Shown here: positions 1-48,834 of the stretch, piece by piece | Position numbering within the stretch: position 1 is the stretch's first letter | How the letters are laid out: every line of letters starts with the position of its first letter | DNA from: Candidatus Dormiibacterota bacterium | GTDB taxonomy: Bacteria > Chloroflexota > Dormibacteria > Aeolococcales > Bog-877 | Assembly (NCBI GenBank): GCA_049591595.1 | Contig: JBAWFE010000027.1 | Location: 149,812 to 213,811, forward strand | Length of the DNA: 64,000 nt | Reading direction: 5' to 3' | Notes under the pieces: generated by a model | Told to the model about the DNA's origin: nothing | Seen by the model: only the letters and a program-made list of their open reading frames with translations | Databases searched by the model: none | Translations under genes and position numbers: made by a program

Positions 1-1045
1 GAGATGGGGGGGTGCCGCTCTGCAGGATCGTGGTCAACCCGACGAGTACCGCCATGGCTCCCACCCCGGCAACTGCCATGCACGCTATCCCCACAATCAG
101 ATTGGGCGAGTTCGCCAGACCTGCTATGGCCAGTGCGATCACGAGACATCCTCCCGCCACCATGCGACCGGGACGGACGTGAAGGCTGCCCGCAGCGAGA
201 CCGCCGAGGATGCCACCCAATGCCTGGCCGGTCAGCATCAGTCCCAAGTCAGTAGCTGACCCGCCCAGATGGTGGCGCACCAGGGGCACCAGCATGACGT
301 TCAGCAGACCTTGACCAACGAATACGAATGCCACGACCGAAAAAATCACGCGCAACGGTCGACCCCCAGCAACCGTGGCCATACCCGACCACATCTCTCG
401 GATGACGCGGCGAACCGCGGTGCCCTCGAAGTCCGCCAGTAGTCCCGGCTGGTCCTCGTTTTCGGCACTCTTGCCGATCGGCCAGCTGGCGGCAGCAGCG
501 AATCCGAAGGTCGCGGCGTCCACGACCACGACTGCGAGCAGCCCGCCCGCGCCGAATAGAAGTCCGCCAATCGGCGGACCGAGAAGCCGGGCCAGATCGA
601 TGCCGAGAGCCTCAATGGCATTGGCAGAAACCAGAATCTCCGGCTCGACGATTTTGTGCACCAGCACCCCGGCGGCGGGCGCCGTGAAGACCGTGCCCAG
701 AGACTCCAGCAGCGCCACCAGATAGACGATCCAGATCTCACCGCTTCCGTGGACGGCGAGCAGGCTGAGCAGCATGAGGGCCTGGGCCGCATTGCAGAAA
801 ATCAGGACTTGACGGGTATTCCAGCGGTCGATCAGGGTCCCGGCCAGCGGTGCCAGCACCACCTGGGGCACGGTTTGGACCACGAACACCGCTCCCGTCG
901 AGACGACGGAGCCGGTGAGCGTGTAGACATAGAACGGAAGGGCGACGAACAGGGCAAAGTCGCCCAATTGGGATACCACACTGCCGGTCCAGTACCGGCG
1001 AAACTGCACGGTCCGCAAGGGCACCAAGAGTTGGGGGGACCGCAT
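1..1045 (-). CDS. MFS transporter, C-terminally truncated by the window edge
   Basis: The ORF track misses this gene. Reverse-strand translation from ATG at 1045 gives MRSPQLLVPLRTVQFRRYWTGSVVSQLGDFALFVALPFYVYTLTGS..., with many hydrophobic helices and typical MFS N-terminus motifs. The frame continues to position 1. Confidence 0.7.
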   Translation of the reverse strand, partial: MRSPQLLVPLRTVQFRRYWTGSVVSQLGDFALFVALPFYVYTLTGSVVSTGAVFVVQTVPQVVLAPLAGTLIDRWNTRQVLIFCNAAQALMLLSLLAVHGSGEIWIVYLVALLESLGTVFTAPAAGVLVHKIVEPEILVSANAIEALGIDLARLLGPPIGGLLFGAGGLLAVVVVDAATFGFAAAASWPIGKSAENEDQPGLLADFEGTAVRRVIREMWSGMATVAGGRPLRVIFSVVAFVFVGQGLLNVMLVPLVRHHLGGSATDLGLMLTGQALGGILGGLAAGSLHVRPGRMVAGGCLVIALAIAGLANSPNLIVGIACMAVAGVGAMAVLVGLTTILQSGTPPS

Positions 1046-9954: not shown

Positions 9955-10833
9955 CTACTTCAGCAGGCGCGAGAGCCGCCGGTCGGCGAGCCGCCGGCCC
10001 TTCGTCTGACAGGTCGGGCAGTACTGCAGCGACTTGGTGGCGAAGGCCACGTGGCAGATGGTGTCTCCGCAGGTCAGACAGGCCAACCCGGTGCGCCCAT
10101 GCACTCTCATGGCCCAGCGCTTCTCGCGCTTCAGACCGCCTGCCTCGAAGCCGGTGCGCTCTGCCACCGCCGTCGTCAGCAGCCCCACCAGCGCAGCGTG
10201 GAGAGCTATCACTTCCTTCTCTGAGAGGTTTTGCGCGGGTTTGAACGGCGACAGCCGGGCGGCGTGGAGGACCTCGTCCGAGTAGGCATTCCCGACTCCC
10301 GCCAATAAAGTCTGATTGGTTAGTGCCGATTTGATGTTCTCCGGGGCGTGACCGAGCAGCTTGGCCAGGGTCCCAGCGGTGAAGGACTGGTCAAGGGGGT
10401 CGACCCCGAGGCTCGCCACGGCCTCGATCCGTTCGGGATGTTCTACAACCCATATCGCGAGACGCTTCTCAGTGCCAGCCTCGGTGAGGTCGATGCCCGG
10501 GCCCCTTTGCGCATCGCCGTCAAGGCCGAACTCCATCCGAAGCGCCAAGGGTCCTCGGCCAAGTCGGACGGGGCCCACTGGAAGGTCGTCGTACCATCGG
10601 ACCCAGCCACTTCGGGCCAGATGTACGACCAGCCAGTTAGTTTCGGTCTCCAGGCAGAGGTACCTACCGCGGCGTCGCCACCCGACAACCGTGCGTCCGA
10701 CGAGGTCGCCCAGTTGGGGTTGGACCGTTTTGAGAGCTGCGAACGAGGCTTGCTCTACTCGGGCAATCTGGCTGCCGCTGGTGCGGAGGTCGAGATAGCG
10801 CACCAGGGCCTCTACCTCGGGCAGCTCAGGCAT
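9955..10833 (-). CDS. formamidopyrimidine-DNA glycosylase / endonuclease VIII family (Fpg/Nei)
   Basis: N-terminal MPELPEVE (catalytic Pro2/Glu3), an H2TH region and a C-terminal zinc finger CLTCGDTICHVAFATKSLQYCPTCQ. Confidence 0.85.
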   Translation of the reverse strand: MPELPEVEALVRYLDLRTSGSQIARVEQASFAALKTVQPQLGDLVGRTVVGWRRRGRYLCLETETNWLVVHLARSGWVRWYDDLPVGPVRLGRGPLALRMEFGLDGDAQRGPGIDLTEAGTEKRLAIWVVEHPERIEAVASLGVDPLDQSFTAGTLAKLLGHAPENIKSALTNQTLLAGVGNAYSDEVLHAARLSPFKPAQNLSEKEVIALHAALVGLLTTAVAERTGFEAGGLKREKRWAMRVHGRTGLACLTCGDTICHVAFATKSLQYCPTCQTKGRRLADRRLSRLLK

Positions 10834-11210
10834 CCGAGCGATCCTTGTCAGTGTCGGGAGAGTGCTTCAGGGTCGCTCCATGCCCAAGGCCGCGGCGCGG
10901 TGACCCGGCGCCGAAAGGCGGTCCTGCGCTGACCGGATCTCCGTGCCCATGGTATTGACCGAGATGTGGGTGGCCCCCACTTCGCGCCAGTTGTCAGCCA
11001 GGGGCGCAACCGTGGAGACGCCCGCCGAGCGCCAGCTGATGCGCTTGAATGCCGAGCCGCGAGGGATCCCGGCCCCATTCCCGAGCGCCTCAGTCAGTGA
11101 CAGTGCCTCTCGCACGAGCAGCTTACGTGTTGACCGCCCCGCCGTAACACGCGGCCCAGCGCTGCCAGTGGGGATTCTGGTCCGGTGAACGGTTGGCCCT
11201 TCGAATCAGA

Positions 11211-13271
11211 TCAGGGAAGGAGGTGGACCGGACTCCCGAGGTACTGGACTTCGACGCTGATGGTGTCTCCCGCAGTGGTTCCTGCCGCAACGTTGTAGTA
11301 CAGGTCCCAGTATGAGGCGAGAGTGGAGGATGGATCGTAATTGGAGGGCACCTGGATGTCGAACTGAACCCATTGTCCGTTGAACAAGGAACCGCCACCA
11401 ACGCTGGTTTCGACCACCGCGGATGTGGTGCTGAACGTGTAGGTGGCCGGGGACGGACCGTCCGTGGTGATTCGAGTGCTCGCACCTCCAGCTTCATACG
11501 CAGCCAGGCTTACACCAAGATTGTCGACCGCAGGCTCGTTGGTCGTGTCGAGAGCCAGCGTGGCGTAGTCCTCTGGATAAGTCTCCGACAATCCGGTGCT
11601 GGGGTTTATGCCCGTGTAGCTCGGCTGGAGGATCCCCAAGTAGGCCGTACCGCTCACATCACCGGGGTCGAAGACTCTGACGGCGATGGTCTTACCCGCA
11701 TATTCCACCGGCAAGGAGAAGAGGGGGACTTGGAAGGAGCCCCCTCCGGCGCCCGCCTGGATCGGGGTATAGATGCACAGATCGGCCATTGCCGAGACGG
11801 TGCAGGAGGTACTGCTGTCGTTGCAAGAGTTGTTCGTCAGACTACTGCTTCCCGGAGTGACGACCCGCAAGGCGTAGGCGTTGTGTGCGAGCGGATAGCT
11901 GTCGGGCAGGCTGGCGCTGTTAACTGGCGATGGGCTGTAGATGACGGTCTGACTCGAGTTGATCACGGCACCGTTCCACATGAGGGTGTCCACGCGCAGG
12001 CGGTAATAGCTGCCCGTGGTCGCGGCGCCGGTAAGAGCAGTAGATGAGCCGCTGCCACTCTCGTAGCTGGCCAGGCTCGGGCTGGTGAAGGAGGCGTTGA
12101 AGAGCTTGGTGCTGTTGCCTCCGGTGTAGCTCAAGAGAGAAACATAGTTCTGAAACACCGTCGGCGTCGTACCTGAAACGGTAGTCGGAGAACCGGGAAT
12201 CGATGAGTTGGGGTTGTTGCAGTTTGCGTAGTACGTGTAGCTAACCGCTCCGCCGTCCTCGATTCCGTAGGCGTCGAAGGGGCAAAAGATATCCTGCTTC
12301 AGGGGAACGTCATCTCCGCGGTTGTTGATATCAGGCACCGCGAAGAGGGTGAACCCCATCGCGGCATAGTCATATGCCGGAGGTTGGGTACCAGTCGTAG
12401 TGTCCGGGAAGCTACTGTCGTCGTCGTGGTAGCTGTTGACGTCAGCATCGTTGTCAGTCCCGGGATCGAAGCTAGGGTTGTAAATCTGAACGTCGTCGGT
12501 GTCTCCGGGTGGGACGTAGATGAGGTAGTCGTACCCACCAGTGTCATTCACGCACATGTTGCCGGTCGTCCCATTCGCGACCCCGCACTTGGTGTCAGTG
12601 GCACCCGAGCAGAGATCGTCGCCCTCGATGCAGCTGATTTGGTGTACGTCCGGACTTGAGACATCGGAGCAATTTCCGTTGCAGCCGGTCGTATTGTCGT
12701 CGTAGGGGGTGGGTGTGAAGGCATCACCCTCGGAACGAGGGTTGCCGTACCCTTCGGTCCGCAGGAAGTACTCACCGGTTTGATCCGCGATCTCCTGCTC
12801 GGTCGACCCGAGCGAGTTCCCGGGCTGACCGAGTTGTATCGGAGGCAGGTACTCCGCAGTGGCCGAGGACGTTACCTCATGCTGGCCAAACCCGAACAGG
12901 TCCAGGAAATACACCGGCGCGGGAGCCGTGATCGACACCGTCAGCTCGTTGGTGGTGTTCGCAGGTTCGGAGACCGACACGGTGATCGCCGAGGTGGGAG
13001 TGCCCGAGGTGTTGGTGTACCCGTCGCGCTGCGCCGTGAGCAACGCTTCGCGGGTGGCGTCAGTCATGTCGCCCGGAAGATAGGACACGCCCGAGAGGGC
13101 AGCGGCAGAGGCCGCCTTCTCCTGTTGGTCACTGTGGAGATAGGAGATGCCGGCGTCTATGGCCAAACCCATGATCGCAAAGAGCACAATGGCGGTCAGG
13201 GCGAAGATCAGCAGGACCTGCCCCTTTTGGGTATGGTGCCAGGACTTCCTGGGTGACTGGCGGCTGGTCAT
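11211..13271 (-). CDS. TadG-like Flp-pilus assembly protein (large, Cys/Ser/Thr/Asn-rich extracellular)
   Basis: N-terminus QKGQVLLIFALTAIVLFAIMGLAIDAGISY matches the Tad TadE/G-like signature (pfam13400-like). 686 aa, many Cys pairs. Lower GC than the surroundings. Confidence 0.6.
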   Translation of the reverse strand: MTSRQSPRKSWHHTQKGQVLLIFALTAIVLFAIMGLAIDAGISYLHSDQQEKAASAAALSGVSYLPGDMTDATREALLTAQRDGYTNTSGTPTSAITVSVSEPANTTNELTVSITAPAPVYFLDLFGFGQHEVTSSATAEYLPPIQLGQPGNSLGSTEQEIADQTGEYFLRTEGYGNPRSEGDAFTPTPYDDNTTGCNGNCSDVSSPDVHQISCIEGDDLCSGATDTKCGVANGTTGNMCVNDTGGYDYLIYVPPGDTDDVQIYNPSFDPGTDNDADVNSYHDDDSSFPDTTTGTQPPAYDYAAMGFTLFAVPDINNRGDDVPLKQDIFCPFDAYGIEDGGAVSYTYYANCNNPNSSIPGSPTTVSGTTPTVFQNYVSLLSYTGGNSTKLFNASFTSPSLASYESGSGSSTALTGAATTGSYYRLRVDTLMWNGAVINSSQTVIYSPSPVNSASLPDSYPLAHNAYALRVVTPGSSSLTNNSCNDSSTSCTVSAMADLCIYTPIQAGAGGGSFQVPLFSLPVEYAGKTIAVRVFDPGDVSGTAYLGILQPSYTGINPSTGLSETYPEDYATLALDTTNEPAVDNLGVSLAAYEAGGASTRITTDGPSPATYTFSTTSAVVETSVGGGSLFNGQWVQFDIQVPSNYDPSSTLASYWDLYYNVAAGTTAGDTISVEVQYLGSPVHLLP

Positions 13272-13273
13272 GG

Positions 13274-13948
13274 CTATGAGCCCTCCGGCGGAAAAGTGAT
13301 CGCGGTATATGAGCTATCGGTCTGCGAGTAGTAGGCAAGTCCGGGCGACGTGAAATGGAACCAGACGGCGACGCCGATTGCCTCCTCATCGTCCACGGAC
13401 TGGGAGCGCAGGTTGAGTGCGTACTCTCCAGTACCGCCTGTAAAACATCCTGATGCGCCAGACGCGCTGGCTCCATCGGTGGCATCGAGGTTCCAGCTTC
13501 CCGTCGTCGAGCAGAAGGTGTAATCGTCCTGCTCGGTGGCTCCGGCCGGGTTACCTTGCGCCACGGAGCAAGTGGAAAGGGCTGGGAGGACTCCGCCTGA
13601 CGGCATACACGAGGCCGGTTGATAAATCTCGATCAGGGTTGGGGTGGAGTTGGAGAGCTGGTTCAGTGACGGCAGCATCGCCGAGAGGATCTCTTCGTCT
13701 ACGGCACAGGGGTCATCAGCGGTCGTCTGGCACGTGGAGTCCTCCTCACATGTCAGCGAACCACTCTGCTCTCCGCAGGTGCTTCCGATTTCGGCGGCGA
13801 TCCTCGCGCCGTAGCCGGTCGCCTGGGCGACACTGTCGTTGTTGGCGATCAAAGCCGCCCCTGTCCACGCTCCGAGGAACACCAGCAGGATCACCGGAAA
13901 AATGATCACGAGCTCGATCAGGGCTTGGCCGCGTTCGCTTCGGCGCAT
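13274..13948 (-). CDS. TadE-like pseudopilin
   Basis: MRRSERGQALIELVIIFPVILLVFLGAWTGA is a TadE N-terminal motif. Its ATG shares a base with the upstream tadE stop (TGATG on the minus strand). Confidence 0.6.
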   Translation of the reverse strand: MRRSERGQALIELVIIFPVILLVFLGAWTGAALIANNDSVAQATGYGARIAAEIGSTCGEQSGSLTCEEDSTCQTTADDPCAVDEEILSAMLPSLNQLSNSTPTLIEIYQPASCMPSGGVLPALSTCSVAQGNPAGATEQDDYTFCSTTGSWNLDATDGASASGASGCFTGGTGEYALNLRSQSVDDEEAIGVAVWFHFTSPGLAYYSQTDSSYTAITFPPEGS

Positions 13949-14580
13949 CACAGGCTTTGCGGCTCCAAGCGGCAGACCACCGATGCGGTGAGGTGGAATG
14001 TCGCCCAACCTCCGATCGTGCTGAAGGTGTAGTCGACCTTGACTAGCGCGAAGTCAGGCGTGCCCACCAGGCCCGAGCTCTGGCTGGTGATGCGATCCTC
14101 GGCTGGCCAACTGCAAGTGGTGTTGACCGTACCGGTGCAGCTCCAGCCTGTCGGGTCGGTGCCGGTGACCCCAGTATGGGTGTAGATCATTTCACAGGGA
14201 ACGCCGCTACCGCAGCCGTCAGTGTCCAGGACGAGGTTCTCGCCCGAGGAACCACTCACCTGGTCTTCCCGTTGTACGGAGATCGAAGTGACTGTGGAGA
14301 GGACGGTATTGTTCAGGCCGGCTGGCTCCATCAGCTGAATGGCCAGTTGGTCCGCGTCCAAGGTGTTCGTCCCCTGGACCTCGGTGCCGTTGCCCTCAGC
14401 AGCGATCTCGGCTGCGCCGACATCGACGGCGTGTTGGAGGGCGTTCCTGGAGAACAGGAGAAGTCCGCCATTTATGATCGAAAAGAAGATAAAAAAGAAG
14501 ATCGGGGCCGCCAGGGCGAATTCGATCGTCGACTGAGCCCGCTGACCCCGTCCCGGACGGAGCAGCCGGTAGAAGAACAT
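13948..14580 (-). CDS. TadE-like pseudopilin
   Basis: RGQRAQSTIEFALAAPIFFFIFFSIINGGLLLF is a TadE motif. The ORF is open to 14607. Confidence 0.6.
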   Translation of the reverse strand: MFFYRLLRPGRGQRAQSTIEFALAAPIFFFIFFSIINGGLLLFSRNALQHAVDVGAAEIAAEGNGTEVQGTNTLDADQLAIQLMEPAGLNNTVLSTVTSISVQREDQVSGSSGENLVLDTDGCGSGVPCEMIYTHTGVTGTDPTGWSCTGTVNTTCSWPAEDRITSQSSGLVGTPDFALVKVDYTFSTIGGWATFHLTASVVCRLEPQSL

Positions 14581-14936
14581 CACACTGCTCCCAGCCCACT
14601 GGACCAATGTCGTTTGGTCGTAGCGAGTGGCAGGTAGGAAGTCGGCCGGGCCAGAGGGAACACGGTGCCGCTGCCCAGGCTCAAGGATGGCTCCTCACGT
14701 CCGCCTGATCGCTGCGCAGCGACGGCCGCGCAAGCAGGCTAGCGCCCGCCCCTGAGGGGCAAACGCAGCCGAGCCAAAATGGATGCTTCACATCCCCCAG
14801 TTTCATGATGTGGCTGGAGCGTATCCGGGCCTGGTCACACCGCGTCCGTACAAACTGTGACGCTTCGGTAACAGCTTCTTTCACTTGTCCAGTTCAGGCC
14901 AGCTGCAGGCTAGCACGCAAAGGGGGCACCGAGTTC

Positions 14937-36460: not shown

Positions 36461-37432
36461 ATGTCCAAAAAGTCGATGGCCGCCCGGCGGCAGATGCGGG
36501 AGGCGGCGGCCGAGGGCCGGGTAGCCGGGTCCCGCCAGCAGACTCGCGGCCGGACCAAAGGCCGTAACTACCGCCGCAACACCTCCGGGCGGCCGTGGGG
36601 TCTGATCTCCGCAGTGGTCGGGGTGGTCGCGGTCTTCGTGATCGTGGTGGTGCTCATCGACGGCTCCGTCCAGGGCGCCTTGAAACAGGACACCCAGGTG
36701 CTGCCCGCGCCCGCATCTTTGGTGAGCGCGCTGGGTCACATTCCGGCGAAGACCCTGGACGCCGTGGCGGGGGGGAGTATCGCTAACTATCCGGTCAATA
36801 TCCCGGCCTCATACAAGCCGGTGGCGCTTAGCGCCAAGGGGCTGCCTGAGTTGGCCTTCGTCGGCGCGGAGTATTGCCCTTTCTGCGCAGTCCAGCGCTG
36901 GTCCCTGATCATTGGACTGAGCCCATTCGGCACGTGGTCGGGGTTACACATAATCCGGTCGTCGGTGTACGACACTCCGTCCAACCTGCCCACTTTCACT
37001 TTCGCCTATGGTGCGAAATTCAAGAGCAAATATCTAAACTTCTCGACCCGCGAACTCGAGAGCAACGTGTCAATAAACAAGGACGGTTCGCCCTACAAAT
37101 CCCTGCAAGCGATAACCGGCGAGCTGGAATCCGCCTTTACCAACATCGGCTCTGGGGGATACCCCTTTTTGGACTACGCCGGTAAAGTGGCCCAGGCGGG
37201 CAGCGAGGAGGGGAGCAGCTCGACCGACGTGGCCGCGTTGCAGGGCCTGAGCTGGAACCAGGTATTGACCCACTTGCGTAATAACCCCAATTCGGCGATA
37301 AGCCAGGTGGTCTTGGGCGGGGCCAACTATGTGACGGCGGCCACCTGCAGCATGACGGGCAATAAGCCCGCGGCGGTCTGCAACAGCTCGAGGATCAAGA
37401 CCCTGGAGAGTCAAGTGGCCGCGAGCGCGTGA
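36461..37432 (+). CDS. thioredoxin-fold protein with CPFC active site (DsbA-like; resembles DUF929)
   Basis: N-terminal Arg-rich cytoplasmic tail, one TM (LISAVVGVVAVFVIVVVLI), then FVGAEYCPFCAVQRWSLI (CxxC). RBS AGGAGA before the ATG. Confidence 0.5.
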   Translation: MSKKSMAARRQMREAAAEGRVAGSRQQTRGRTKGRNYRRNTSGRPWGLISAVVGVVAVFVIVVVLIDGSVQGALKQDTQVLPAPASLVSALGHIPAKTLDAVAGGSIANYPVNIPASYKPVALSAKGLPELAFVGAEYCPFCAVQRWSLIIGLSPFGTWSGLHIIRSSVYDTPSNLPTFTFAYGAKFKSKYLNFSTRELESNVSINKDGSPYKSLQAITGELESAFTNIGSGGYPFLDYAGKVAQAGSEEGSSSTDVAALQGLSWNQVLTHLRNNPNSAISQVVLGGANYVTAATCSMTGNKPAAVCNSSRIKTLESQVAASA

Positions 37433-37962
37433 GCAAATCTCGGAGTCGTCGACGGATGGTGCCGGCCACCGCCGGAGCCGACTCGGGAACTGAGCTCAGA
37501 TCCCCCGATGAGCGCTCTGAGTCGTCGCCGCTGGGGGCGGTGGCACTGGTCGTGCTCGCTCTCGTTGGAATGGGTCTTGCGGGGTACCTGACGGCGGTCC
37601 ACTATGCCCCCACGCTGTTGGTCTGCAGCAACAGCGGGGTGATCAACTGTGAGGCAGTACTGACCAGTAGCTTCTCGCTGATCCCGGGCACCTCGATTCC
37701 CATCACCGTGCCTGGGCTGGCCTTCTTCCTAGTCAGCTTGGCGCTGGCGGGGTCGCAGCTGCGTCGGCCGGAGAACTATCAGCTCCGCCAGGCCCACGCG
37801 GTGTGGGGAGGTCTGGGTCTGCTGACCGCGCTCTACTTGGTGTTTGTGGAAGTGATGGAGGTGCACAACATTTGCCTCTGGTGCTCCTGCGTGCATCTGA
37901 CCCTCCTGCTCACCTTCCTCATCACTCTATGGCGCCTCTACCCCAAGCCGAACGCCCGGTAA
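37429..37962 (+). CDS. vitamin K epoxide reductase (VKOR) family membrane oxidoreductase
   Basis: 4 TM. Loop cysteine pair CSNSGVINC and CxxC at the start of the last TM (CLWCSC). The GTG start overlaps the upstream stop (GTGA). Confidence 0.65.
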   Translation: MSKSRSRRRMVPATAGADSGTELRSPDERSESSPLGAVALVVLALVGMGLAGYLTAVHYAPTLLVCSNSGVINCEAVLTSSFSLIPGTSIPITVPGLAFFLVSLALAGSQLRRPENYQLRQAHAVWGGLGLLTALYLVFVEVMEVHNICLWCSCVHLTLLLTFLITLWRLYPKPNAR

Positions 37963-37973
37963 AACTGTGCTGG

Positions 37974-39566
37974 TCAGGGCAGGGCCCTGGCCTGGCTGGC
38001 ACAGGCGGCGATACCTCTGGACCGCCAGCTGGCCGCCGTAGGGTTGGCGGGCAGGTGCAGGGTGCTGAGCAGGCTGGTCCGCTCAAAACCCTCGACCCGG
38101 CGGTCCCGGTAGACGAGGGTCCACTCCTTCGATTGCTGAAGCGCATCCGGGAAGGCGGTGCCCCGTTCGAACACGACCACCTGGGAGGGGCTGGAGTCGA
38201 GGTTTTTGAGCCAGTTGGGGCTCAAGTCGATAATCGAGGCGTAGCGCTCCAGCAGCTGGCTGCCCATCAGCGCTGCGTCACCGAAGATGAACACCTTGTC
38301 CTTCGGCACTGAGTAAGCGAGGAAGCCACCGTCACCGTACTGGTTGAAGATGCGCAGCTGCCCCGGTGCGGAATCAAGCCACCTCGCGGCGCAGACGGGA
38401 AAGGAGTTGATGTAGGTCGAGGAGTTCAGCGCCGGGCTACCGCCGGTGTCCACCTGGACAGTCAGGAGGGCCAGTAGGAAGACGAACTCCAGCAGCTCGA
38501 CCAAAATCACCACCGGCGGCTGGCGCAGCCTCAGGTGGGGACGCCACCGTCGGGCCAGGTCAAGTCGGGCGCGGTCAGCCAGATTGATCCAGACAGGGGC
38601 GCCGGCCGCCAAGAGGAAGACACTGTTGCGTACCGACTGGAGGGTGAGGAAGAGGCTCAGGGCCAGCACTAGCCCGTCGCGCAGCGAGATCGATCGATAC
38701 CGGACCAGAAGCACCCCCAGGCTGAGGATGAAGATCAAAAGGGGGAGCAGCACCGCCGCGTGAAAGTCCGGGCTCTGCCACTCCTGGATCAGCGCCTGCT
38801 GGGCGGTGTTGAACTGTGTCTCGAAGGGGTAGGCGATGATCGCCGGTCCGTTGGGGTTGAGCAGGCATACAGCAACCGAGCAGCCGGTCGCCCATCCGAG
38901 TTGCACGATCCGATGTCGGTCTAGGGCGGACCGGCGCCGGGCCAGGACCAGGCCGCCCTCCACCACCATGATGGCCAGCAGGAAGATCAGCCCAAGGATG
39001 AATCCGGCATGCAGGTTGGACCAGATCAGGAAGATCGGGGGTAGCAGCCAGGCGGCGAACCCACCCCGCCGCAGTTGACGCTCCGCCAAGAGGAGCACCA
39101 ACGCCGTGAGCATGTATGAATCCATCTGGGAGCGCGGTCCCAGGATCGGATAGGCGGCCAGAGCTGCCAGCAGGATGCCCACCGCTAGGGTCGCGCCGTG
39201 GGCGGGTCCCAGCTCTCGGGATCGCAGCCAGATGAGCAGGAACAGGGCCAGGGTAATCAGCTCGTAGACGATCACCACACCTAAGCGGCCGGAGGCGGCG
39301 GCGACTGCCGCCATCCAGGACTCACTCAGCCACTCCTGCATCACCCAGTGGCGACCCACCGCCATGAAGGCGTACGGGTTGACGTGGATGAGAGCGTTGG
39401 TGGCCAGCAGGGTCTTGCCGTTCCGCAGGTGCCACCAGAAGTCCGGGTCCGAGACCTCGGGTCGTGCCAGGAGCATGGCCGCCAGGAGCCCACTCAGGGC
39501 GAGGAACCGAGGCAAGGTCAACCACTGGCGCCGCGTGGTCGCCCGCCTCAGCTGATCCGGTGGCAC
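37974..39566 (-). CDS. polytopic membrane protein (paralog of 34858-36411)
   Basis: DFWWHLRNGKTL / IHVNPYAF motifs, >10 TM, and a C-terminal domain PVCAARWL...YGDGGFLA...WTLVYRD matching the paralog. Confidence 0.5.
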   Translation of the reverse strand: MPPDQLRRATTRRQWLTLPRFLALSGLLAAMLLARPEVSDPDFWWHLRNGKTLLATNALIHVNPYAFMAVGRHWVMQEWLSESWMAAVAAASGRLGVVIVYELITLALFLLIWLRSRELGPAHGATLAVGILLAALAAYPILGPRSQMDSYMLTALVLLLAERQLRRGGFAAWLLPPIFLIWSNLHAGFILGLIFLLAIMVVEGGLVLARRRSALDRHRIVQLGWATGCSVAVCLLNPNGPAIIAYPFETQFNTAQQALIQEWQSPDFHAAVLLPLLIFILSLGVLLVRYRSISLRDGLVLALSLFLTLQSVRNSVFLLAAGAPVWINLADRARLDLARRWRPHLRLRQPPVVILVELLEFVFLLALLTVQVDTGGSPALNSSTYINSFPVCAARWLDSAPGQLRIFNQYGDGGFLAYSVPKDKVFIFGDAALMGSQLLERYASIIDLSPNWLKNLDSSPSQVVVFERGTAFPDALQQSKEWTLVYRDRRVEGFERTSLLSTLHLPANPTAASWRSRGIAACASQARALP

Positions 39567-39679
39567 GTCATATCCCGAGCGATCACGGGCGCCAGTGTAG
39601 GTGGGGCCGGCGGCCCCTCACTGTGGCGTCGCCTGACCAGCCCCGGGCATTTCTTTGGGCCACCACGTACCCTTTGGGC

Positions 39680-40868: not shown

Positions 40869-41072
40869 ATGCTCGGAAGTTGGTACGTACGGCTGCGTGA
40901 CCGGATCGGTCAGGTAGTCTCGCACCGCGACTCGGACGAAGAGGGCCAGGGGATGGTTGAGTACGCGTTGATCCTGGTGCTGATCGCGATCGTTGTCATC
41001 GTTATCCTCACTGTGGTGGGACACCGCGTCAGCGACGTCTTCTCCAACATCAACACTGGTCTCGGCGGCTGA
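40869..41072 (+). CDS. flp: Flp-family type IVc prepilin
   Basis: GQGMVEYALILVLIAIVVIVILTVVG matches the Flp motif G/xxxxEY followed by a hydrophobic helix. AAGGAGG RBS 7 nt upstream. 67 aa. Confidence 0.65.
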   Translation: MLGSWYVRLRDRIGQVVSHRDSDEEGQGMVEYALILVLIAIVVIVILTVVGHRVSDVFSNINTGLGG

Positions 41073-41176
41073 TTCGTCGTAGCACTCAAGCGCGCGGCGG
41101 GGCGACCCGCCGCGCGTTTGTCCAATCCACCCAACGGCCCCGCGGCCCGCGGTAATCCCAGCGGAGGTTTTCGACG

Positions 41177-42328
41177 GTGACGACCGATTTGAAAGGACGG
41201 GTCAATCAGGTCTGGATCGCCATAGGGCTGATCCTCGCGATCCTCGCGTTCGGCGCGGCTTATTACTTCACTCGCGCCAACACCAATAACACTCGAGTGG
41301 CCCCGGCCACCGGCCAGTTGGTGGTGATCGCGAAGGTCTCGATCCCCAGCGGTACGCTGATCACCGCCGGCATGCTCGAGGAGACCCGGATCAAGGGTCT
41401 GCTACCCCTCGATTCGTACAGCTCGTGTGTGCAACTCGTGCGCACCGCCTGTGCTGCAACTGCCGGTGTGTCGGCATCGCAGTCGACGTCAACCTCCGCC
41501 TCGGACTATTACGCCGTCGTTCCGATCACCCCCAACACGGTGATCACTCAGAACAACGTCTCCGTAAACCGAGCAACCCAGTCACCATCTTTCGGCAACT
41601 TGAATCTGCCGGCTGGTGAAGTTGCCGTGGCTATTCCGATTACCGCCGCGGAGTCGGTCGCCGGCTACCTCCAGGTGGGTGACCGGATTGACATCATCGG
41701 TCTTGACTCGAGCGGAAACACCGACTTCACCTTCGAGGACCTTCCGGTGATCAGCATCGGATCTCCGTCGACGGCGACCGGGGCAGCGAGCAGCTCGTCA
41801 GGCGGCGGACTGATCGTTCTTCAGCTGACGCGCAGCGAGGCCCTTGGCGTGACCGAGATGGTCAACGACGGTTCCATATACACGATCGCGCTGCGGTCCA
41901 GTGCGGACTACGGCCACGGCTACATTCCGATCACTTCGACGCCGGCTGACGAGTACACCCAGGCCTGCGTGGCGGGGAGCTCCGTCAACCCGATCATCCA
42001 AGAGGACATGCAGACGGCTCAGCTGTCGGTCACGGCGGCGTCCAAGACCTACACCACCGCCCACAAGCAATACAACAAGGACAACACCGCGCTGCAGAGC
42101 ATGTCGGGCACCGGCTCGGCCGAGCAGGCCGCCAAGGCCCAAGTGCTCACGGATGCGGCCACCTTGGCCCAGGATCAGTTCGCCCTGATCGAGGCCCAGA
42201 ATGAGCTGGCTTCCGACCAAGCGGTCCTGTACTGCGGATCCACCAATGCCGCCAGCTCGTCATCGTCGGCGGGCAACAATTCCGGTAGCTCGCAGATGCT
42301 GCAGAACCTCTTTGGCTTCAAACCCTGA
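41177..42328 (+). CDS. cpaB: CpaB/RcpC-family Flp pilus assembly protein with C-terminal extension
   Basis: N-terminal TM (WIAIGLILAILAFGAAYYF) then a SAF-like region QLVVIAKVSIPSGTLITAGML. ~150 aa extra C-terminal coiled coil and Ser-rich tail. Confidence 0.6.
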   Translation: MTTDLKGRVNQVWIAIGLILAILAFGAAYYFTRANTNNTRVAPATGQLVVIAKVSIPSGTLITAGMLEETRIKGLLPLDSYSSCVQLVRTACAATAGVSASQSTSTSASDYYAVVPITPNTVITQNNVSVNRATQSPSFGNLNLPAGEVAVAIPITAAESVAGYLQVGDRIDIIGLDSSGNTDFTFEDLPVISIGSPSTATGAASSSSGGGLIVLQLTRSEALGVTEMVNDGSIYTIALRSSADYGHGYIPITSTPADEYTQACVAGSSVNPIIQEDMQTAQLSVTAASKTYTTAHKQYNKDNTALQSMSGTGSAEQAAKAQVLTDAATLAQDQFALIEAQNELASDQAVLYCGSTNAASSSSSAGNNSGSSQMLQNLFGFKP

Positions 42329-42367
42329 TCCTGAGGGACGAGCGCACCTCAGGGTAGCCGGTAGTTC

Positions 42368-43627
42368 GTGAGCACCACGGTGGCGGATAAGACCGTCATC
42401 CGCGTGGTGGTGGTCGACGACATCGCCAGCACCCGAGAGAACCTCAAGAAGTTGCTCTCCTTCGAGGAGGACATTGAGGTTGTCGGGACCGCTGGCGATG
42501 GCCGGACCGGCATCGACGTGACCCGGCAACTCTCGCCGCACGTGGTGCTGATGGACGTCAACATGCCGGGAATGGACGGGATCGCCGCGACTGAGACCCT
42601 GGCAGTGGAATCGCCCAACTCCCCGGTCGTGATCATGTCCGTCCAGGGGGAGCGGGACTACCTGCGCCGCGCGATGCAGTCGGGTGCTCGGGAGTTCCTC
42701 ATCAAGCCCTTCACCGGCGACGAGCTGGTGTCCAGCATCCGCCGGGTCTACGAGATGGAGGAGAAGAAGGGATCCTACCTGCCGCGCCAGCCTCCCCCCC
42801 AGGAGCAGGTAGGCGACCTGCCCCCAACCGGTTGCCAGGTGTGTCTGGTTCTCAGCGGGAAGGGGGGCTGCGGCAAGACCTTCTTGGCCATCAACCTCGC
42901 CGCCGCCCTGCGGACGGAGACGGGCGGTCGGGTCTGCCTGGTCGATCTCGATCTCCAGTTCGGCGACATCGGCGTGATGCTCAATTTGGACCACGCCAAG
43001 ACGATCACCGAACTGGTGGACAGCGAGAGTGCGTTGGACTGGGAGTTCGTCGACGACATCCTGGCCGATGGTCCAGAGGGGATTCGGGTCCTGCTGGGTC
43101 CCTTCAGCCCGGAGTTCGGGGACCTAGTCCGGGCGGAGCATGTGCGCGCCATCGTCGACGTTCTGCGACGAGAGTTTGACTATGTCGTCGTGGACAGTGG
43201 GAGCCAACTATCGGAGGCTACCCTCGAAGCAACCGAGTTGGCCGATCACGTGATCGTGGTCGGTGAGCTCACTATTCCCGCGATCAAGGACACTCGCCTG
43301 ATGCTGAAGATGCTGGAGTCGCTCAAAGTGGACCGCTCGCGGGTCATGGTCGCGGTCAACGCCCATGACGCGCATGCCGTCTATGACGCAGCCAGCATCG
43401 AGCGCAATCTGCGGTTCCCGGTCAAGCTGCAGATACCCTCGGAGCCTCGCCTGGTGGGCGGATCGATCCATCGGGCGATCCCGCTGGTCGTCTCCCACCC
43501 GGATTCCGACATCTCCTTGCTCTTCCGCAACCTGGCCCGAAGCCTGGCACCGGAAGGGGCAGCTCAGCCTGAACTCAAGGCCGAGGCCAAGGCGCCCACC
43601 GCCCGTCGCTTCGGGCTTCGGCGCTAG
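42368..43627 (+). CDS. tadZ: TadZ/CpaE: response-regulator receiver fused to a MinD/ParA-like ATPase
   Basis: REC domain with an intact phospho-acceptor region (VVVDD...VVLMDVNMPGMDG...FLIKPF), then a deviant Walker A LSGKGGCGKTFLAINLAAAL. Confidence 0.75.
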   Translation: MSTTVADKTVIRVVVVDDIASTRENLKKLLSFEEDIEVVGTAGDGRTGIDVTRQLSPHVVLMDVNMPGMDGIAATETLAVESPNSPVVIMSVQGERDYLRRAMQSGAREFLIKPFTGDELVSSIRRVYEMEEKKGSYLPRQPPPQEQVGDLPPTGCQVCLVLSGKGGCGKTFLAINLAAALRTETGGRVCLVDLDLQFGDIGVMLNLDHAKTITELVDSESALDWEFVDDILADGPEGIRVLLGPFSPEFGDLVRAEHVRAIVDVLRREFDYVVVDSGSQLSEATLEATELADHVIVVGELTIPAIKDTRLMLKMLESLKVDRSRVMVAVNAHDAHAVYDAASIERNLRFPVKLQIPSEPRLVGGSIHRAIPLVVSHPDSDISLLFRNLARSLAPEGAAQPELKAEAKAPTARRFGLRR

Positions 43628-43653
43628 GCCCAGTCGAGGAGTACTGCCAGGCC

Positions 43654-45225
43654 ATGTCACTGCTGGAGAGAGTTCGGACCAAGGACGGATCGGAGCCGGA
43701 GCCCGGCCCCGAAGTGTCCGCGCCAGTCGAGGAGAAGCCCAAGGCCAGGACGCCTGAGCCGGCAGCTGCGGCCCCCCCCGCTCCACCTCCCGCTGCTCCT
43801 TCTCGCCTAGCGGCCGCCCTGGCTGCCGCCAAGCCTCCGGCCGTAGCCGCCCCGGCCAAGTCGCCAGGATGGCGGGAGCGGTCCCAGACCAATCGGGAGA
43901 ACCCCTCGGCGGTGGTCGAGCCCCGGGCGGCTCATCACCCGCAGTACATGTCGATCAAGGCGCGGGTGACCCAGGCCCTACTGGAGGAGTACACCGACGT
44001 CTCCCAGGCGCCCCGCGAGCGGTTGGTCGCCAAGATCGGGGAGCTCTGCAATTCGGTCCTGGAAGAGCTGAGCATTTCGATCACCCGCACCGATCGGCAG
44101 CGGATGGTGGAGCAGCTGATCAGCGACGTGCTCGGCCTGGGCCCGCTGGAGATGATTCTCAAGGACCCGGAGATCAGCGAAATCATGATCAACGGCCCGG
44201 AGGATGTCTACGTCGAGCGCCAGGGAAGGATCTATCGCTACCCGGCCAAGTTCGACAACACGGACCACCTGATGCAGATCATCGACCGGATCGTCAGCTC
44301 GATCGGACGCCGAGTCGATGAGAGCTCGCCGATGGTGGACGCCAGACTCAAAGACGGCTCCCGGGTCAACGTGATCATCCCGCCGCTGGCGCTCCAGGGA
44401 CCGACTTTGACCATCCGGCGCTTCTCCAAGGACCCCTACACGGTGGAGGATCTGATCAACTTCGGAACTCTCACCGCTGAGATGGCGACGTTCATCCGGG
44501 CCTGCGTGCGGGCCAGGTTCAACGTGCTGATCTCAGGAGGCACCGGGTCCGGTAAGACGACCACTCTGAACGTGCTCTCCGGCTGGATCCCCGACGACGA
44601 GCGGATCATCACAATTGAGGACGCAGCCGAGTTGCAGCTGCGCCAAGACCACGTTGTGACCCTGGAGTCGCGCCCCTCCAACATCGAGGGCCGAGGACGG
44701 GTCAGCATTCGTGATCTGGTCATCAACAGCCTGCGGATGCGGCCGGATCGGATCGTCGTCGGTGAGTGTCGGGGAGGTGAGGCCCTGGATATGCTCCAGG
44801 CGATGAACACAGGCCACGACGGCTCACTTACCACTGTTCACGCCAACACTCCAGCCGACGCTTTGACCCGACTGGAGACCATGACGTTGATGGCCGGCAC
44901 CGACCTCCCGTCGCGGGCCATCCGCGAGCAGATCGCGTCGGCTATCCACCTGGTGGTTCAGCAAGCTCGCCTTCGCGATGGCACCCGGCGCATCATCGCC
45001 ATCTCCGAAGTCCGGGGCTTCGACGGGGAACGGGTCGAGATCGCGGACATCTTCCAGTACCGCCAGAAGGGCCTCGATGACCAGGGGATGGTGATCGGCC
45101 AGTTCGAAGCGGTCCAGGTTCCCAAGCGCCTCGATGATCTGGCCGCCGCTGGCGAGGGGTTGGAGGAATCGCTGTTTGCTCCTCCTTCCAAGGGCAAAAT
45201 AGCAGCAGGAGAGACCGCCGCATGA
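43654..45225 (+). CDS. tadA: CpaF/TadA secretion ATPase (VirB11/PilB superfamily) with Pro/Ala-rich N-terminal extension
   Basis: Walker [24 protein letters not shown], Asp/His boxes [17 protein letters not shown]. ~130-aa low-complexity N-terminus. Confidence 0.9.
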   Translation: MSLLERVRTKDGSEPEPGPEVSAPVEEKPKARTPEPAAAAPPAPPPAAPSRLAAALAAAKPPAVAAPAKSPGWRERSQTNRENPSAVVEPRAAHHPQYMSIKARVTQALLEEYTDVSQAPRERLVAKIGELCNSVLEELSISITRTDRQRMVEQLISDVLGLGPLEMILKDPEISEIMINGPEDVYVERQGRIYRYPAKFDNTDHLMQIIDRIVSSIGRRVDESSPMVDARLKDGSRVNVIIPPLALQGPTLTIRRFSKDPYTVEDLINFGTLTAEMATFIRACVRARFNVLISGGTGSGKTTTLNVLSGWIPDDERIITIEDAAELQLRQDHVVTLESRPSNIEGRGRVSIRDLVINSLRMRPDRIVVGECRGGEALDMLQAMNTGHDGSLTTVHANTPADALTRLETMTLMAGTDLPSRAIREQIASAIHLVVQQARLRDGTRRIIAISEVRGFDGERVEIADIFQYRQKGLDDQGMVIGQFEAVQVPKRLDDLAAAGEGLEESLFAPPSKGKIAAGETAA

Positions 45226-46253
45226 ACGCTCTAGTACTGGTCCTGGACGGGGTCGGTGCCTTGGCCTTGGGAGCCGCGGTCGCCTACCTGCTCGCCTCCT
45301 GGCGCTCGAAGTCGGGAAGTGCCGACATGGATGAGCGGGTGCGCCGCTTCGCCGAAGCCGGCGCCGGACTGGCGATCTCCGTCCCCGGTGATGAGGACTT
45401 TGGCGAATCGGCCGGCAGCCTGCAGGATCGAGCCAAGAAGCTGCTGGCGCGGCTGCGCCGCCAGGTTGAAGGAGGCAGTAAGGCGGCGGGCGTAGCCCAG
45501 CGACCTAGGTCGGTGCAAGTGGCGGAGGCGTTGGCGCGGGCTGATGTCAAGCTGCGACCGACAGAGTGGTATCTGATTCGAATCGGGGCGGTGGTGCTGC
45601 TGGCGCTGATCGGTCTCGCCCTCTACCGCAGCCTCATCTTCGCGCTCATCCTCGGAGTGATCGGTGTCTTCGTTCCTCCGTTGGTGCTGCGCTTTCGAGC
45701 CCGACGCCGCCTCGGCCGCTTCAATGACCAGCTCGGGGACACCCTGATCCTCCTCAGCAACGCGCTCAAGGCCGGTTACAGCTTTCCCCAGGCGATGGCC
45801 AGCATCGCCCGCTCGGCGCCACCGCCGACCTCGGAGGAGTTCGCCCGGGCAACCCGGGAGGTGCAGCTGGGGGTGACCACCGACGCGGCGCTCACCCACA
45901 TGGTCCATCGGATCCAGTCCGACGACCTCGACCTGGTAGTTACCGCCGTGCAGATTCAGCGCGTCGTGGGCGGCAATCTGGCCGAGATCTTCGACAACAT
46001 CGCCTTCACCATCCGGGAGCGTATCCGGATCAAGGGTGAGATCAAGACCCTGACCGCCCAGGCCCGGGCCTCGAGCTTCATCATCACCGGATTGCCGATC
46101 GGCTTGGGACTGATCCTGGAGGCGATCAACCCCAACTACATCGCCCCCCTGCTCTCCTTCAAGGGCCCTGGTCCGTACATCCTGATTGGATGCCTGATCT
46201 CCATTGCCTTCGCCTTCTACGTGATGCAGCGCATCGCCAACATCGAGGTCTGA
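45222..46253 (+). CDS. tadB: TadB (T2SS-F domain inner-membrane platform protein)
   Basis: T2SSF-like domain. 4-nt overlap with tadA. Confidence 0.8.
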   Translation: MNALVLVLDGVGALALGAAVAYLLASWRSKSGSADMDERVRRFAEAGAGLAISVPGDEDFGESAGSLQDRAKKLLARLRRQVEGGSKAAGVAQRPRSVQVAEALARADVKLRPTEWYLIRIGAVVLLALIGLALYRSLIFALILGVIGVFVPPLVLRFRARRRLGRFNDQLGDTLILLSNALKAGYSFPQAMASIARSAPPPTSEEFARATREVQLGVTTDAALTHMVHRIQSDDLDLVVTAVQIQRVVGGNLAEIFDNIAFTIRERIRIKGEIKTLTAQARASSFIITGLPIGLGLILEAINPNYIAPLLSFKGPGPYILIGCLISIAFAFYVMQRIANIEV

Positions 46254-46256
46254 GCG

Positions 46257-47174
46257 ATGTCTTATGAAGCGCTGATCGTCGGTTTGATCGCCGCCGCCGC
46301 GGTCTTCCTGGTCTTTGCCGGGCTGATCAAGCGCCAACCCCAGGTGAACCTCCTGGACGCGCGGCTCGCCGTGTATGACGAGCCAACAGGTCCCAGGACG
46401 CTCGATGAGATCGAGATGAGCCAGCCCTTCACGGAGCGCTTCCTGCGCCCCTTCTTCGACCGCATCGGTCGGCGGGTGGCGGCTCTTCAGCCGCGGGACC
46501 GCGCCCAGAAACTCCAGATTCTCATCGACCTGGCCGGCCGGCCGATGGGGATGAACGCGGGTAGCTTCGTGGCCGCCCAGATCGTGCTCGCAGTGCTGGG
46601 GGCCGTCGTGGGTCTCGGCCTGGCGGTCCTGCTTTCCTTGCCTTGGTTCCTCGGCTTGGTCTTCGGCGCCGTGCTCGGTTACATCGGCCCGCAGTACCAG
46701 CTGAAGCGGATCGTGAGCGCAAAGCAGAAGGAGATCTCGCTGGCGCTACCCAACGCCCTCGACCTCCTCTGCATCAGCGTGGAGGCCGGTCTGGGATTCG
46801 ACGCCGCCTTGGCTCGGGTGATCGAGAAATTTGATAACGCCCTCTCACGGGAATTCGCCTTCGTGCTCAACGAAATCCGGCTGGGGCGACCCCGCCACGA
46901 GGCGCTCGAGGATCTCGGCAAGCGCTCAGGGGTTCAGGAGCTGGCGTCCTTCATCCAGGCGCTGGTGCAGTCCGATCAACTTGGGGTGGGCATCGCCCGC
47001 GTTTTGCGCATCCAGTCCGACGAGATGCGCCGCCGCCGGCGTCAGAAGGCGGAGGCCAAGGCTCAGCAGGCGAGCCTGAAGATGCTCTTCCCGATGGTCG
47101 GCTGCATCTTCCCGGTGCTGTTCGTGATCCTGCTGGGTCCGCCGGCTGTGGCGTTGATCTTCCATGTCACCTAA
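46257..47174 (+). CDS. tadC: TadC (T2SS-F domain inner-membrane platform protein)
   Basis: Second T2SSF-like protein, 3 nt after tadB. Confidence 0.75.
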   Translation: MSYEALIVGLIAAAAVFLVFAGLIKRQPQVNLLDARLAVYDEPTGPRTLDEIEMSQPFTERFLRPFFDRIGRRVAALQPRDRAQKLQILIDLAGRPMGMNAGSFVAAQIVLAVLGAVVGLGLAVLLSLPWFLGLVFGAVLGYIGPQYQLKRIVSAKQKEISLALPNALDLLCISVEAGLGFDAALARVIEKFDNALSREFAFVLNEIRLGRPRHEALEDLGKRSGVQELASFIQALVQSDQLGVGIARVLRIQSDEMRRRRRQKAEAKAQQASLKMLFPMVGCIFPVLFVILLGPPAVALIFHVT

Positions 47175-47637
47175 TTCGGCTCCGGCGAACACCGCCGGTC
47201 CCCGTTCGCGAACGGTGGTGGTGCGCGCCGCCGACGGCGCGGTGGTGGCCCGTCGGGTGACCGTGGCGGATCGCTTCGGACCCCGCCTGATGGGGCTGAT
47301 GGGTCGCGCCCAGCTCGACCCTGACGAGGGACTGTGGCTGGTGCCGTGCAACAGTGTTCACATGTTCTTCATGCGGACCCCGTTGGACATTGCCTATCTC
47401 GACCGCCAGCTGCGGGTGGTGCGCTGCGTGCCGGAGATGCGGGAATGGCAGGTCAAGCTGCTGCCGGTGCGGCATGCGCATAGCGCCCTCGAGCTGGCCC
47501 CGGGCACCCTGCGTCGCACGGGAGTCAGCGAGGGCGATGAGCTAAAGATAGGGTCGGAGCCCGCGAGTGTCGCGGAGTTAGCCCCGGAGATGTCCGGCAC
47601 CGGTTCAGCGGTGTTCAGTTCCAGTGTCAGGGAGTAG
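47164..47637 (+). CDS. DUF192 (COG1430) domain protein
   Basis: GLMGRAQLDPDEGLWLVPCNSVHMFFMRTPLDIAYLDRQLRVV ... ALELAPG follows the DUF192 consensus. It overlaps tadC by 11 nt. Confidence 0.55.
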   Translation: MSPNSAPANTAGPRSRTVVVRAADGAVVARRVTVADRFGPRLMGLMGRAQLDPDEGLWLVPCNSVHMFFMRTPLDIAYLDRQLRVVRCVPEMREWQVKLLPVRHAHSALELAPGTLRRTGVSEGDELKIGSEPASVAELAPEMSGTGSAVFSSSVRE

Positions 47638-47640
47638 TCA

Positions 47641-48834
47641 ATGAGTCCGGTCCTTACCGAAGAAGAGAGGCTGCAAGGCATGGAGGGATACCTCCAGGCC
47701 CTCGGTCCGCTGCGGGTTCTAGTGGAAGATGACAGTCTCACCGAGATCATGGTCGTCGGTCCGGACATGGTGTACGTGGAGGCCCAGGGCAAGATCGTGC
47801 TCACCGACGTCCGCTTCCGCGACAACGAGCATCTCCTCAAGGTGATCGACCTGATCGTCGCCGCGGTCGGACGCCGCGTTGACGTTCGTCAGCCACTCTG
47901 TGACGCACGTTTGCTGGACGGCTCCCGCGTCAACGCGGTGGTGCCCCCGGTGTCTATCGACGGACCAATTCTGACCATCCGTAAGTTCGCCAAAGAGCGC
48001 CTGCGGATCACCGACCTGATCCATTTCGGCACCATCGATGAGGCGGGTGCATCGTTCATGCAGGCCTGCGTGCTGGCCCGCGCGAACATCCTCATCTCGG
48101 GAGGCACCGGCGCCGGCAAGACGACGCTGCTGAACATCTGCTCAGGCTTCATTCCTCCCGACGAGCGCATCGTCACCATCGAGGACGCCGCAGAGCTGCA
48201 GATGCACCAGGAGCATGTCTGTCGGCTGGAGTCGCGTCCCCCGGACGTGCGTGGCGAGGGCCGGATCAACATCCGCGACCTGGTCATCAACGCCCTCCGG
48301 ATGCGACCTGATCGAATTGTGGTCGGTGAGGTTCGAGGCGGTGAGGCTCTGGACATGCTTCAGGCCATGAACACGGGCCATGACGGCTCCATGACCACCG
48401 TCCACGCCAACACCCCTCGAGACAGTCTCTCCCGTCTGGAGACCCAGGTATTGATGGGTGGCGTGGAGCTGCCCTCGAAGGCGATTCGTCAGCAGATCTC
48501 CAGCGCCATCGACATCATCGTGCAGCTCAACCGCCTCCGCGACGGCAGCCGTCGGATCACCGCGATCAGCGAGGTGGTCGGGATGGAGGGCGACACGATC
48601 ACGATGCAGGACATCTTCGTGATGAAGGCCGAGGGCATGGATCAGCAGGGCAACCTGAAGAATGAGTTCGAGCTGACCGGGGTCAGGCCGCAGATCCTCG
48701 ACCGTCTCTTCGACATGGGCTTGGCGGTTCCACCCGAGATCTCAAGGCTCTTCCCGGACCGGCGCACCGACCAGGTGGCGGCGATCAAGTTGCCGACACC
48801 ACCCCCCGGTCCATTGCAGAGGCGTCTTGGCTGA
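47641..48834 (+). CDS. second CpaF/TadA-like secretion ATPase paralog (N-terminally shorter, 397 aa)
   Basis: [40 protein letters not shown]. ~80% nt identity to the tadA core over ~100 nt (44758-44850 vs 48319-48420). Confidence 0.85.

Follow-up and report, generated by a model that had tools for sequence, protein, structure and literature searches.

What do three minus-strand genes with TadE- and TadG-type N termini contribute to a bacterium whose main tad operon lies elsewhere? The question is raised by a 64-kb stretch of a Candidatus Dormiibacterota genome (contig JBAWFE010000027.1; this whole stretch is called the window below, and all coordinates refer to it), in which an earlier note, made from the letters of the sequence, had placed a tadE–tadE–tadG cluster ~26 kb from the main tad operon and on the opposite strand. 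Distance and orientation proved correct, with the core Tad operon occupying the plus strand (Table 1). The Dormibacterota are an uncultured and widespread soil phylum whose surface structures are almost unknown, and in the literature on their pili we found nothing specific. Our analysis indicates that the trio is probably a minor-pilin set, consisting of a TadE, a TadF equivalent and a TadG/CpaL equivalent, and thus the initiation and tip complex of a Dormibacterota Tad (type IVc) pilus.

Identity of the three gene products

As listed in their longest forms, the three consecutive minus-strand open reading frames (ORFs) span 11211-13271 (686 aa), 13274-14008 and 13948-14607. Independent gene calls, by NCBI and others, on three public contigs carrying an identical locus place the starts at ATG 14580 (210 aa), ATG 13948 (224 aa) and ATG 13271 (686 aa), and the homolog alignments of the two smaller proteins, TadE1 and TadE2, begin at the same positions. 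The junctions described in the earlier note were present in the sequence: TGATG at 13946-13950 merges the tadE1 stop TGA (13950-13948) with the tadE2 start ATG (13948-13946), base 13948 being common to both, and TAG-CC-ATG leaves a 2-nt gap (13273-13272) between tadE2 and the gene of the 686-aa protein. Shine–Dalgarno motifs of the GGGAG/GGAGG type precede ATG 14580 (there GGGAG) and ATG 13271. The three genes are one translationally coupled operon. Its promoter is presumed to lie in the intergenic stretch that separates tadE1 from the divergent prmC, whose longest ORF starts at 14805 (the gene callers put the start of prmC ~130 nt farther inside, near 14938); we call it presumed because no sigma-70-like consensus was found in that region, and a promoter and terminator scan of 10800-14900 gave no sites above shuffled-sequence counts. 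Downstream, between the tadG-like gene and fpg, lies an 82-aa ORF (10867-11115, minus strand) that two of the three public records (L001 and L003) list as a gene and that has no Pfam match on record.

Both small proteins exceeded the Pfam TadE (PF07811) gathering score of 22.9 bits, TadE1 with 42.3 bits and TadE2 with 27.0 bits. TadE1 is 100% identical to a protein named 'TadE/TadG family type IV pilus assembly protein' at NCBI, from a Candidatus Dormiibacterota metagenome-assembled genome (MAG); an NCBIfam search with the three proteins gave no meaningful match. The leaders, MFFYRLLRPGRGQR-A↓QSTIEFAL in TadE1 and MRRSERG↓QALIELVIIFP in TadE2 (the arrow marks the putative cleavage point), have Ala and Gly, respectively, at −1 and Glu at +5, some TadE1 homologs having Gly at −1. 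This cleavage-type motif, A/G at −1 with E at +5, is conserved across the homolog alignments of both proteins, and the combination of a prepilin-peptidase motif with a hydrophobic helix, present in each, fits the published prepilin consensus G/A-X4-F/E (PMC12607857). TadE1 and TadE2 are distant paralogs, their families being aligned by hhalign with a probability of 97.6% over 109 columns. The AlphaFold2 (AF2) model of TadE2 consists of a long N-terminal helix and a beta-sheet (predicted local distance difference test score, pLDDT, 66.7).

The 686-aa protein fell just under the gathering scores of two families, with 21.0 bits against 22.3 for Tad (PF13400, over residues 17-62) and 19.5 bits against 22.1 for Tad_C (PF09977, over residues 49-139). 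Among 45 full-length homologs, however, Tad was matched by 33 (best E 7.8e-08) and Tad_C by 23, and none of the 45 matched any other Pfam family. The TadE/TadG signatures proposed for the cluster were thus recovered outright for the small proteins and, for the large one, in many members of its family. Its NCBI name, again from Candidatus Dormiibacterota MAGs, is 'pilus assembly protein TadG-related protein'. All three products are already annotated in public records and the gene set is of an ordinary kind; their identities as two TadE-type pseudopilins and one TadG-type protein hold up in these sequence comparisons. Nor is the length of 686 aa much beyond the typical, as had been supposed, since the family ranges from ~600 to 740 aa and CpaL has ~600 (PMC12918778).

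A confident AF2 model of the 686-aa protein, built from the 45-sequence alignment, reached a pLDDT of 83.5 and a predicted template modelling score of 0.85. The predicted helix and sheet of residues 12-173, mostly with pLDDT >85, resemble a pilin, and beyond them a loop-rich stretch leads to a distal module (Table 1). The leader motif KG↓QVLLIFAL has Gly at −1 and Ile at +5 in place of Glu5, and the +5 residue is hydrophobic in all homologs. The extreme C terminus is one of the best conserved regions in the family, with G679 and P681 invariant and H683 and L684 nearly so. Conserved extreme C termini were observed in all three proteins: ..RLEPQSL in TadE1 (13948-13975), ..ITFPPEGS in TadE2 (13274-13300) and ..GSPxHLLP in the 686-aa protein (11211-11240). 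All three are candidates for strands that mediate beta-strand complementation between the subunits of a tip complex.

The trio as a presumed partner of the core Tad operon

The core operon contains Flp and the assembly machinery and lacks tadE, tadF and tadG, a secretin and a prepilin peptidase; with no minor pilins of its own, it would obtain from the trio what it lacks. Its Flp pilin carries the motif G↓QGMVEY(AL), with Gly at −1 and Glu at +5, and so fits the prepilin consensus; its gene was the only Flp-type one to emerge from a motif scan of the window. The lack of a secretin fits the placement of Dormibacteraeota, by comparative analysis, in a monoderm clade with Chloroflexi and the Candidate Phyla Radiation (bioRxiv 10.1101/2021.05.31.446380).

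On this basis a course of assembly can be proposed. TadE1 and TadE2 would be inserted into the membrane and processed at [G/A]↓Q-x-x-x-E by a prepilin peptidase whose gene lies outside the window; with the pilin-like module at the N terminus of the 686-aa protein they would make up a three-helix bundle. The bundle would prime Flp polymerisation, the pilin being supplied by the core operon at a distance of 26 kb, and stay at the pilus tip, where the ~510-residue, beta-rich and disulfide-braced module would be displayed at the distal end and give the pilus its binding specificity. For the trio as a whole we infer heterotrimer formation, processing, a tip location and an adhesive role.

Several points weigh against this reading. 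The 686-aa protein of the window itself scores below both Pfam gathering scores, and the TadE2 model is of moderate confidence. A crude hydrophobicity screen of the ORFs, as opposed to a profile search, gave no candidate for a prepilin peptidase in the window. Processing of the 686-aa protein is uncertain, as its +5 residue is hydrophobic and neither Glu nor Phe, and the older literature treats TadG as an assembly factor of the cytoplasmic membrane and no pilus subunit (PMC6916266). In keeping with that classical view, the 686-aa protein could be an uncleaved, membrane-anchored assembly or stabilising factor with its beta domain in the wall zone, only the TadE proteins entering the pilus. No member of the large-protein family has Glu5 or Phe5 after the G-Q motif, TadG is listed as a cytoplasmic-membrane component needed for piliation in Aggregatibacter actinomycetemcomitans and Micrococcus luteus (PMC6916266), and a monoderm-type operon without secretin could need a factor that spans the wall. 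We consider this arrangement unlikely and retain the tip complex as the preferred reading; the predicted architecture of the 686-aa protein, with a pilin-like N-terminal module and a conserved C-terminal strand, has its counterpart in CpaL (see below).

If the trio forms a tip, its specificity would reside in the distal module. The earlier note had suggested searching for von Willebrand factor A (vWA) or adhesin domains, and this came back empty: the 686-aa protein contains no vWA/MIDAS domain and no adhesin domain known to Pfam. A PDB sequence search gave no match even at E<=10, and Foldseek comparison of the model with the PDB gave nothing at E<=1e-3, the only matches being weak ones to jelly-roll and carbohydrate-binding module (CBM)-like folds. 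Conserved positions in this part are D208, H210, H282, D285, D321, R424, D428, H463 and H683, the Asp and Arg residues being invariant and the His residues near-invariant. It is conceivable, though we would not presume it, that the ~510-residue module (~175-686) represents a previously undescribed pilus-tip domain family of Dormibacterota and some Chloroflexota-like lineages, a new adhesin or even a metal-dependent enzyme on a Tad pilus. Were this true, tips may be exchanged, in the manner of Myxococcus, where a genome has two paralogous trios.

As claimed, the proteins of the trio are rich in Ser, Thr, Asn, Gly and Asp, which together make up 39-44% of residues versus 23-29% in cytoplasmic neighbours. 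The 'many cysteines' of the earlier note apply to TadE2 (8, 3.6%) and TadE1 (5, 2.4%), which are enriched, but not to the 686-aa protein, whose 11 cysteines (1.6%) are a share no higher than that of cytoplasmic neighbours. Across 18 TadE2 homologs, C67, C73, C81, C114, C127 and C146 are invariant, while C58 is kept in 17 and C168 in 16. TadE1 has four family-typical cysteines, the invariant pair C123/C129 and a second pair found in 11-12 of 16 homologs. In the TadG-like family, cysteine columns are gained and lost together (197/201, 214/221, 229/240, 273/280, 330/351, 438/443 and 483/490; Jaccard 0.9-1.0). This paired gain and loss, with the conserved cysteines of TadE2, points to disulfides in the trio proteins, and the suggestion of extracellular, disulfide-stabilised subunits is thereby supported at the level of sequence. 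The window also contains an overlapping DUF929–VKOR gene pair, likely an extracytoplasmic disulfide-forming system and a candidate for oxidising the Cys pairs of the tip proteins; the link to the trio is one that we infer. N-x-S/T sequons numbered 12 versus 7.6 ± 2.4 in shuffles, with no significant enrichment, and glycosylation of the trio proteins is speculation.

Conservation and origin of the cluster

A word-indexed search returned 119 homologs of the 686-aa protein, nearly all of them full-length (600-740 aa). An exhaustive HMMER search, for which the distal 546 residues served as query, gave only 207 of 1.84 billion cluster representatives at E<=1e-3, mostly of the same architecture. Among GTDB species representatives, the large-protein family is present in MAGs of Dormibacterota, some of them labelled 'Chloroflexi bacterium CF_'; more distant forms come from MAGs of Chloroflexia and Limnocylindrales, and Acidimicrobiia gave partial matches. 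Of the 44 full-length loci of the family that have 1.5 kb or more of upstream sequence, 39 have a TadE gene directly upstream of the large-protein gene, and 25 have both TadE types. By contrast, where 8 kb or more was available on either side (25 loci), a tad core gene was found nearby (within 8-10 kb) in just 1. Judged from these gene neighbourhoods, Dormibacterota conserve the trio as a stand-alone cassette.

The surroundings of the cassette differ between several of the genomes that carry it. The position between prmC and fpg is nevertheless common to the window and to the 2.39-Mb ENA contig_16369, where TadE2 (P0134) is 53% identical to that of the window. The same contig has two paralogous tadE–tadE–tadG trios ~125 kb apart, one adjoining enolase and the other between prmC and fpg (L004 10001-12112; L007 8681-10840). 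Two further arrangements were observed. In a Dormibacteraceae MAG (L024, 3000-11800), a tadG-like gene following a TadE1-type gene adjoins a cpaB–cpaE–cpaF–tadB–tadC operon divergently, and separation from the core is therefore common and not universal. In the complete Dormibacteraeota chromosome OY970355.1 (L019), CpaF-like ATPase genes stand on both sides of the trio, at about 7000 and about 12500, unlike at the other loci.

Could the trio be a horizontally acquired adhesion islet, a foreign and A/T-richer segment unrelated to the resident tad operon? Its DNA is indeed the poorest in G and C, with 59.3-61.9% GC per kb versus ~65% in the flanks and the lowest 1-kb value of the window at 12001-13000, and its remote position, opposite strand and variable flanking genes would suit such an origin. 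The description of the cluster as compositionally distinct is nevertheless overstated: the dip is confined to first codon positions, where GC (GC1) is 0.54-0.57 versus ~0.70 in neighbours. At third positions (GC3) the trio has 0.72-0.77 versus 0.69-0.79 in adjacent genes, with 0.69-0.77 in fpg, GNAT, prmC and sua5, and a synonymous-codon likelihood corrected for amino-acid content gave −0.085 to −0.110 for the trio versus −0.108 to −0.171 for the same four genes. The synonymous codon usage of the trio is within the range of its neighbours, that is, native. The same GC1 drop occurs in other exported proteins of the window, CpaB, the YkwD-like protein and DUF929, and Lys plus Arg amount to 2-4% in the trio proteins versus 6-13% in cytoplasmic neighbours. 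The dip in GC content is thus an amino-acid effect on GC1, caused by proteins rich in Ser, Thr and Asn and poor in Arg and Lys, and the native GC3 and codon usage leave no compositional sign of foreign DNA. The cluster has no integrase, tRNA or repeats at its sides, Rfam and tRNA scans over the full window came out negative, and the prmC–trio–fpg position is kept in a genome with a diverged trio. Horizontal acquisition was rejected on GC3 and codon usage, and we regard an unrelated islet as very improbable.

That the trio builds a short pseudopilus for protein secretion or DNA uptake instead of an adhesive tip would agree with the action of Tad-like systems in the competence of Micrococcus luteus (in work cited in PMC6916266) and with the second TadA-like ATPase of the core operon, but we give it hardly any credence, as Pfam searches of the trio and its homologs detected no secreted-substrate or DNA-binding domain, and a large distal module that is rich in beta-sandwich and has weak similarities of the CBM/lectin kind is better suited to binding.

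The core operon and its surroundings have features of their own. Its two ATPases of the TadA/CpaF family, of 523 aa (43654-45225, plus strand) and 397 aa (47641-48834, plus strand), match TIGR03819 with E values of 1e-100 and 2e-90. Between their genes lie tadB, tadC and a DUF192 gene (47164-47637). The shorter ATPase is without the N-terminal extension and could act as a motor dedicated to retraction or as a second one for extension. The CpaE/TadZ ATPase (42368-43627, plus strand) carries an N-terminal response-regulator receiver domain, and a histidine-kinase-like ORF (39464-40741, plus strand) is located immediately upstream of flp; by their predicted domains, the two suggest a phosphorelay control of pilus assembly. 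At the other end, a gene for a YkwD/CAP-like protein with a signal peptide, 12 consecutive glycines and a tail rich in Pro and Thr (48827-49666, plus strand) overlaps with its start the end of the second ATPase gene and may be co-transcribed with the tad operon.

Table 1. Positions of the trio, of other features of the window and of the predicted parts of the 686-aa protein
Feature	Position	Strand	Basis
tadG/cpaL-like large minor-pilin-like protein (686 aa)	11211..13271	-	Tad/Tad_C near cut-off, homolog family
tadE/tadF-like minor pilin 2 (TadE2, 224 aa)	13274..13948	-	Pfam TadE, alignment, AF2, hhalign
tadE-like minor pilin 1 (TadE1, 210 aa)	13948..14580	-	Pfam TadE, NCBI match, alignment
Divergent intergenic region tadE1/longest prmC ORF, presumed trio promoter region	14581..14804	.	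gene layout
DUF929 and VKOR overlapping gene pair	36461..37962	+	Pfam DUF929 64.3 bits, VKOR 72.1 bits
Core Tad operon: flp, cpaB, receiver-cpaE/tadZ, cpaF/tadA, tadB, tadC, DUF192, second tadA-like ATPase	40869..48834	+	Pfam, NCBIfam
686-aa protein: helix (Tad-type hydrophobic helix 17-62)	residues 12-62		AF2
686-aa protein: second helix	residues 69-82		AF2
686-aa protein: beta-sheet of pilin-like head (head ~63-173, Tad_C)	residues 97-173		AF2
686-aa protein: lower-confidence loop-rich stretch with CNGNC and CIEGDDLC	residues ~174-246		AF2
686-aa protein: nearly pure beta distal module, final short strand 682-684	residues 247-686		AF2

Comparison with known Tad systems

The locus shows that Dormibacterota bear genes for a monoderm-type Tad pilus, with a probable tip set kept as a separate and conserved operon, sometimes in two copies, and it would extend the idea of modular Tad tips, developed in Myxococcus and Caulobacter, to a distant lineage. 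It also allows a better annotation, in which the trio is read as a putative tip and initiation complex and the dip in GC content not as a sign of horizontal transfer. What novelty remains lies in the distal domain, as yet uncharacterised, and in the cassette being duplicated on occasion. That lineage-specific domain is now defined and could be expressed for binding assays; no new mechanism is opened.

A close parallel is given by the KilL/M/N proteins of Myxococcus xanthus, TadE/F/G-like trios that form interchangeable 'Tip' complexes on the Kil Tad pilus (Herrou et al. 2025; PMC12075869). Three of the four Kil Tips have their genes outside the core cluster, KilN as the large member has a distal domain with no homologs in the PDB, many disulfides are predicted in the Tips, and the same authors proposed that TadEFG form tips generally (PMC12075869). 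The trio described here is likewise a three-gene TadE/TadF/TadG-like set located away from the core, with a large member whose distal domain lacks PDB homologs. It shares the multiple intramolecular disulfides, predicted there and suggested here by paired cysteine columns and the conserved cysteines of TadE2, and the occurrence of more than one paralogous set per genome, the two trios of ENA contig_16369 recalling the several interchangeable Tips of Myxococcus. There are also differences. No sequence relationship of the distal domains has been shown, and the distal domain of KilN has long helices whereas that of the 686-aa protein is nearly all beta. The host here belongs to a non-predatory, apparently monoderm soil lineage and has no associated type III secretion system, and no gene for an adapter Flp of the KilK/KilO kind lies beside the trio.

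In Caulobacter crescentus, CpaL (~600 residues) combines a pilin module with a vWA domain and is predicted to sit on CpaJ/CpaK at the tip (PMC12607857), and according to a 2026 preprint, TadG/CpaL behaves as a GspK/PilK analog whose C-terminal beta-strand is needed for assembly (PMC12918778). As in CpaJ–CpaK–CpaL, two small minor pilins are here accompanied by a large minor-pilin-like protein built of a pilin module at the N terminus, a large domain in the middle and a conserved, predicted strand at the extreme C terminus; unlike CpaL and many, though not all, TadG proteins, the 686-aa protein has no vWA domain. The tadE–tadF–tadG genes of A. actinomycetemcomitans, all needed for piliation (Tomich et al. 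2007, as summarised in PMC6916266), have the same order and the same Pfam families (TadE twice, then Tad/Tad_C) but are located at the 3' end of the tad locus, in contrast to the separate operon found here and in most Dormibacterota loci. The likeness to the GspI–GspJ–GspK tip of the type II secretion system (PDB 3CI0) is weak and limited to the pilin module, in a different system and without sequence similarity. Given the Kil Tips of Myxococcus and CpaJKL of Caulobacter, the remoteness, size, cysteines and coupling of the trio each have a published precedent. It is the distal module that sets this locus apart, being neither a vWA domain nor KilN-like in its secondary structure, and restricted to its lineage.

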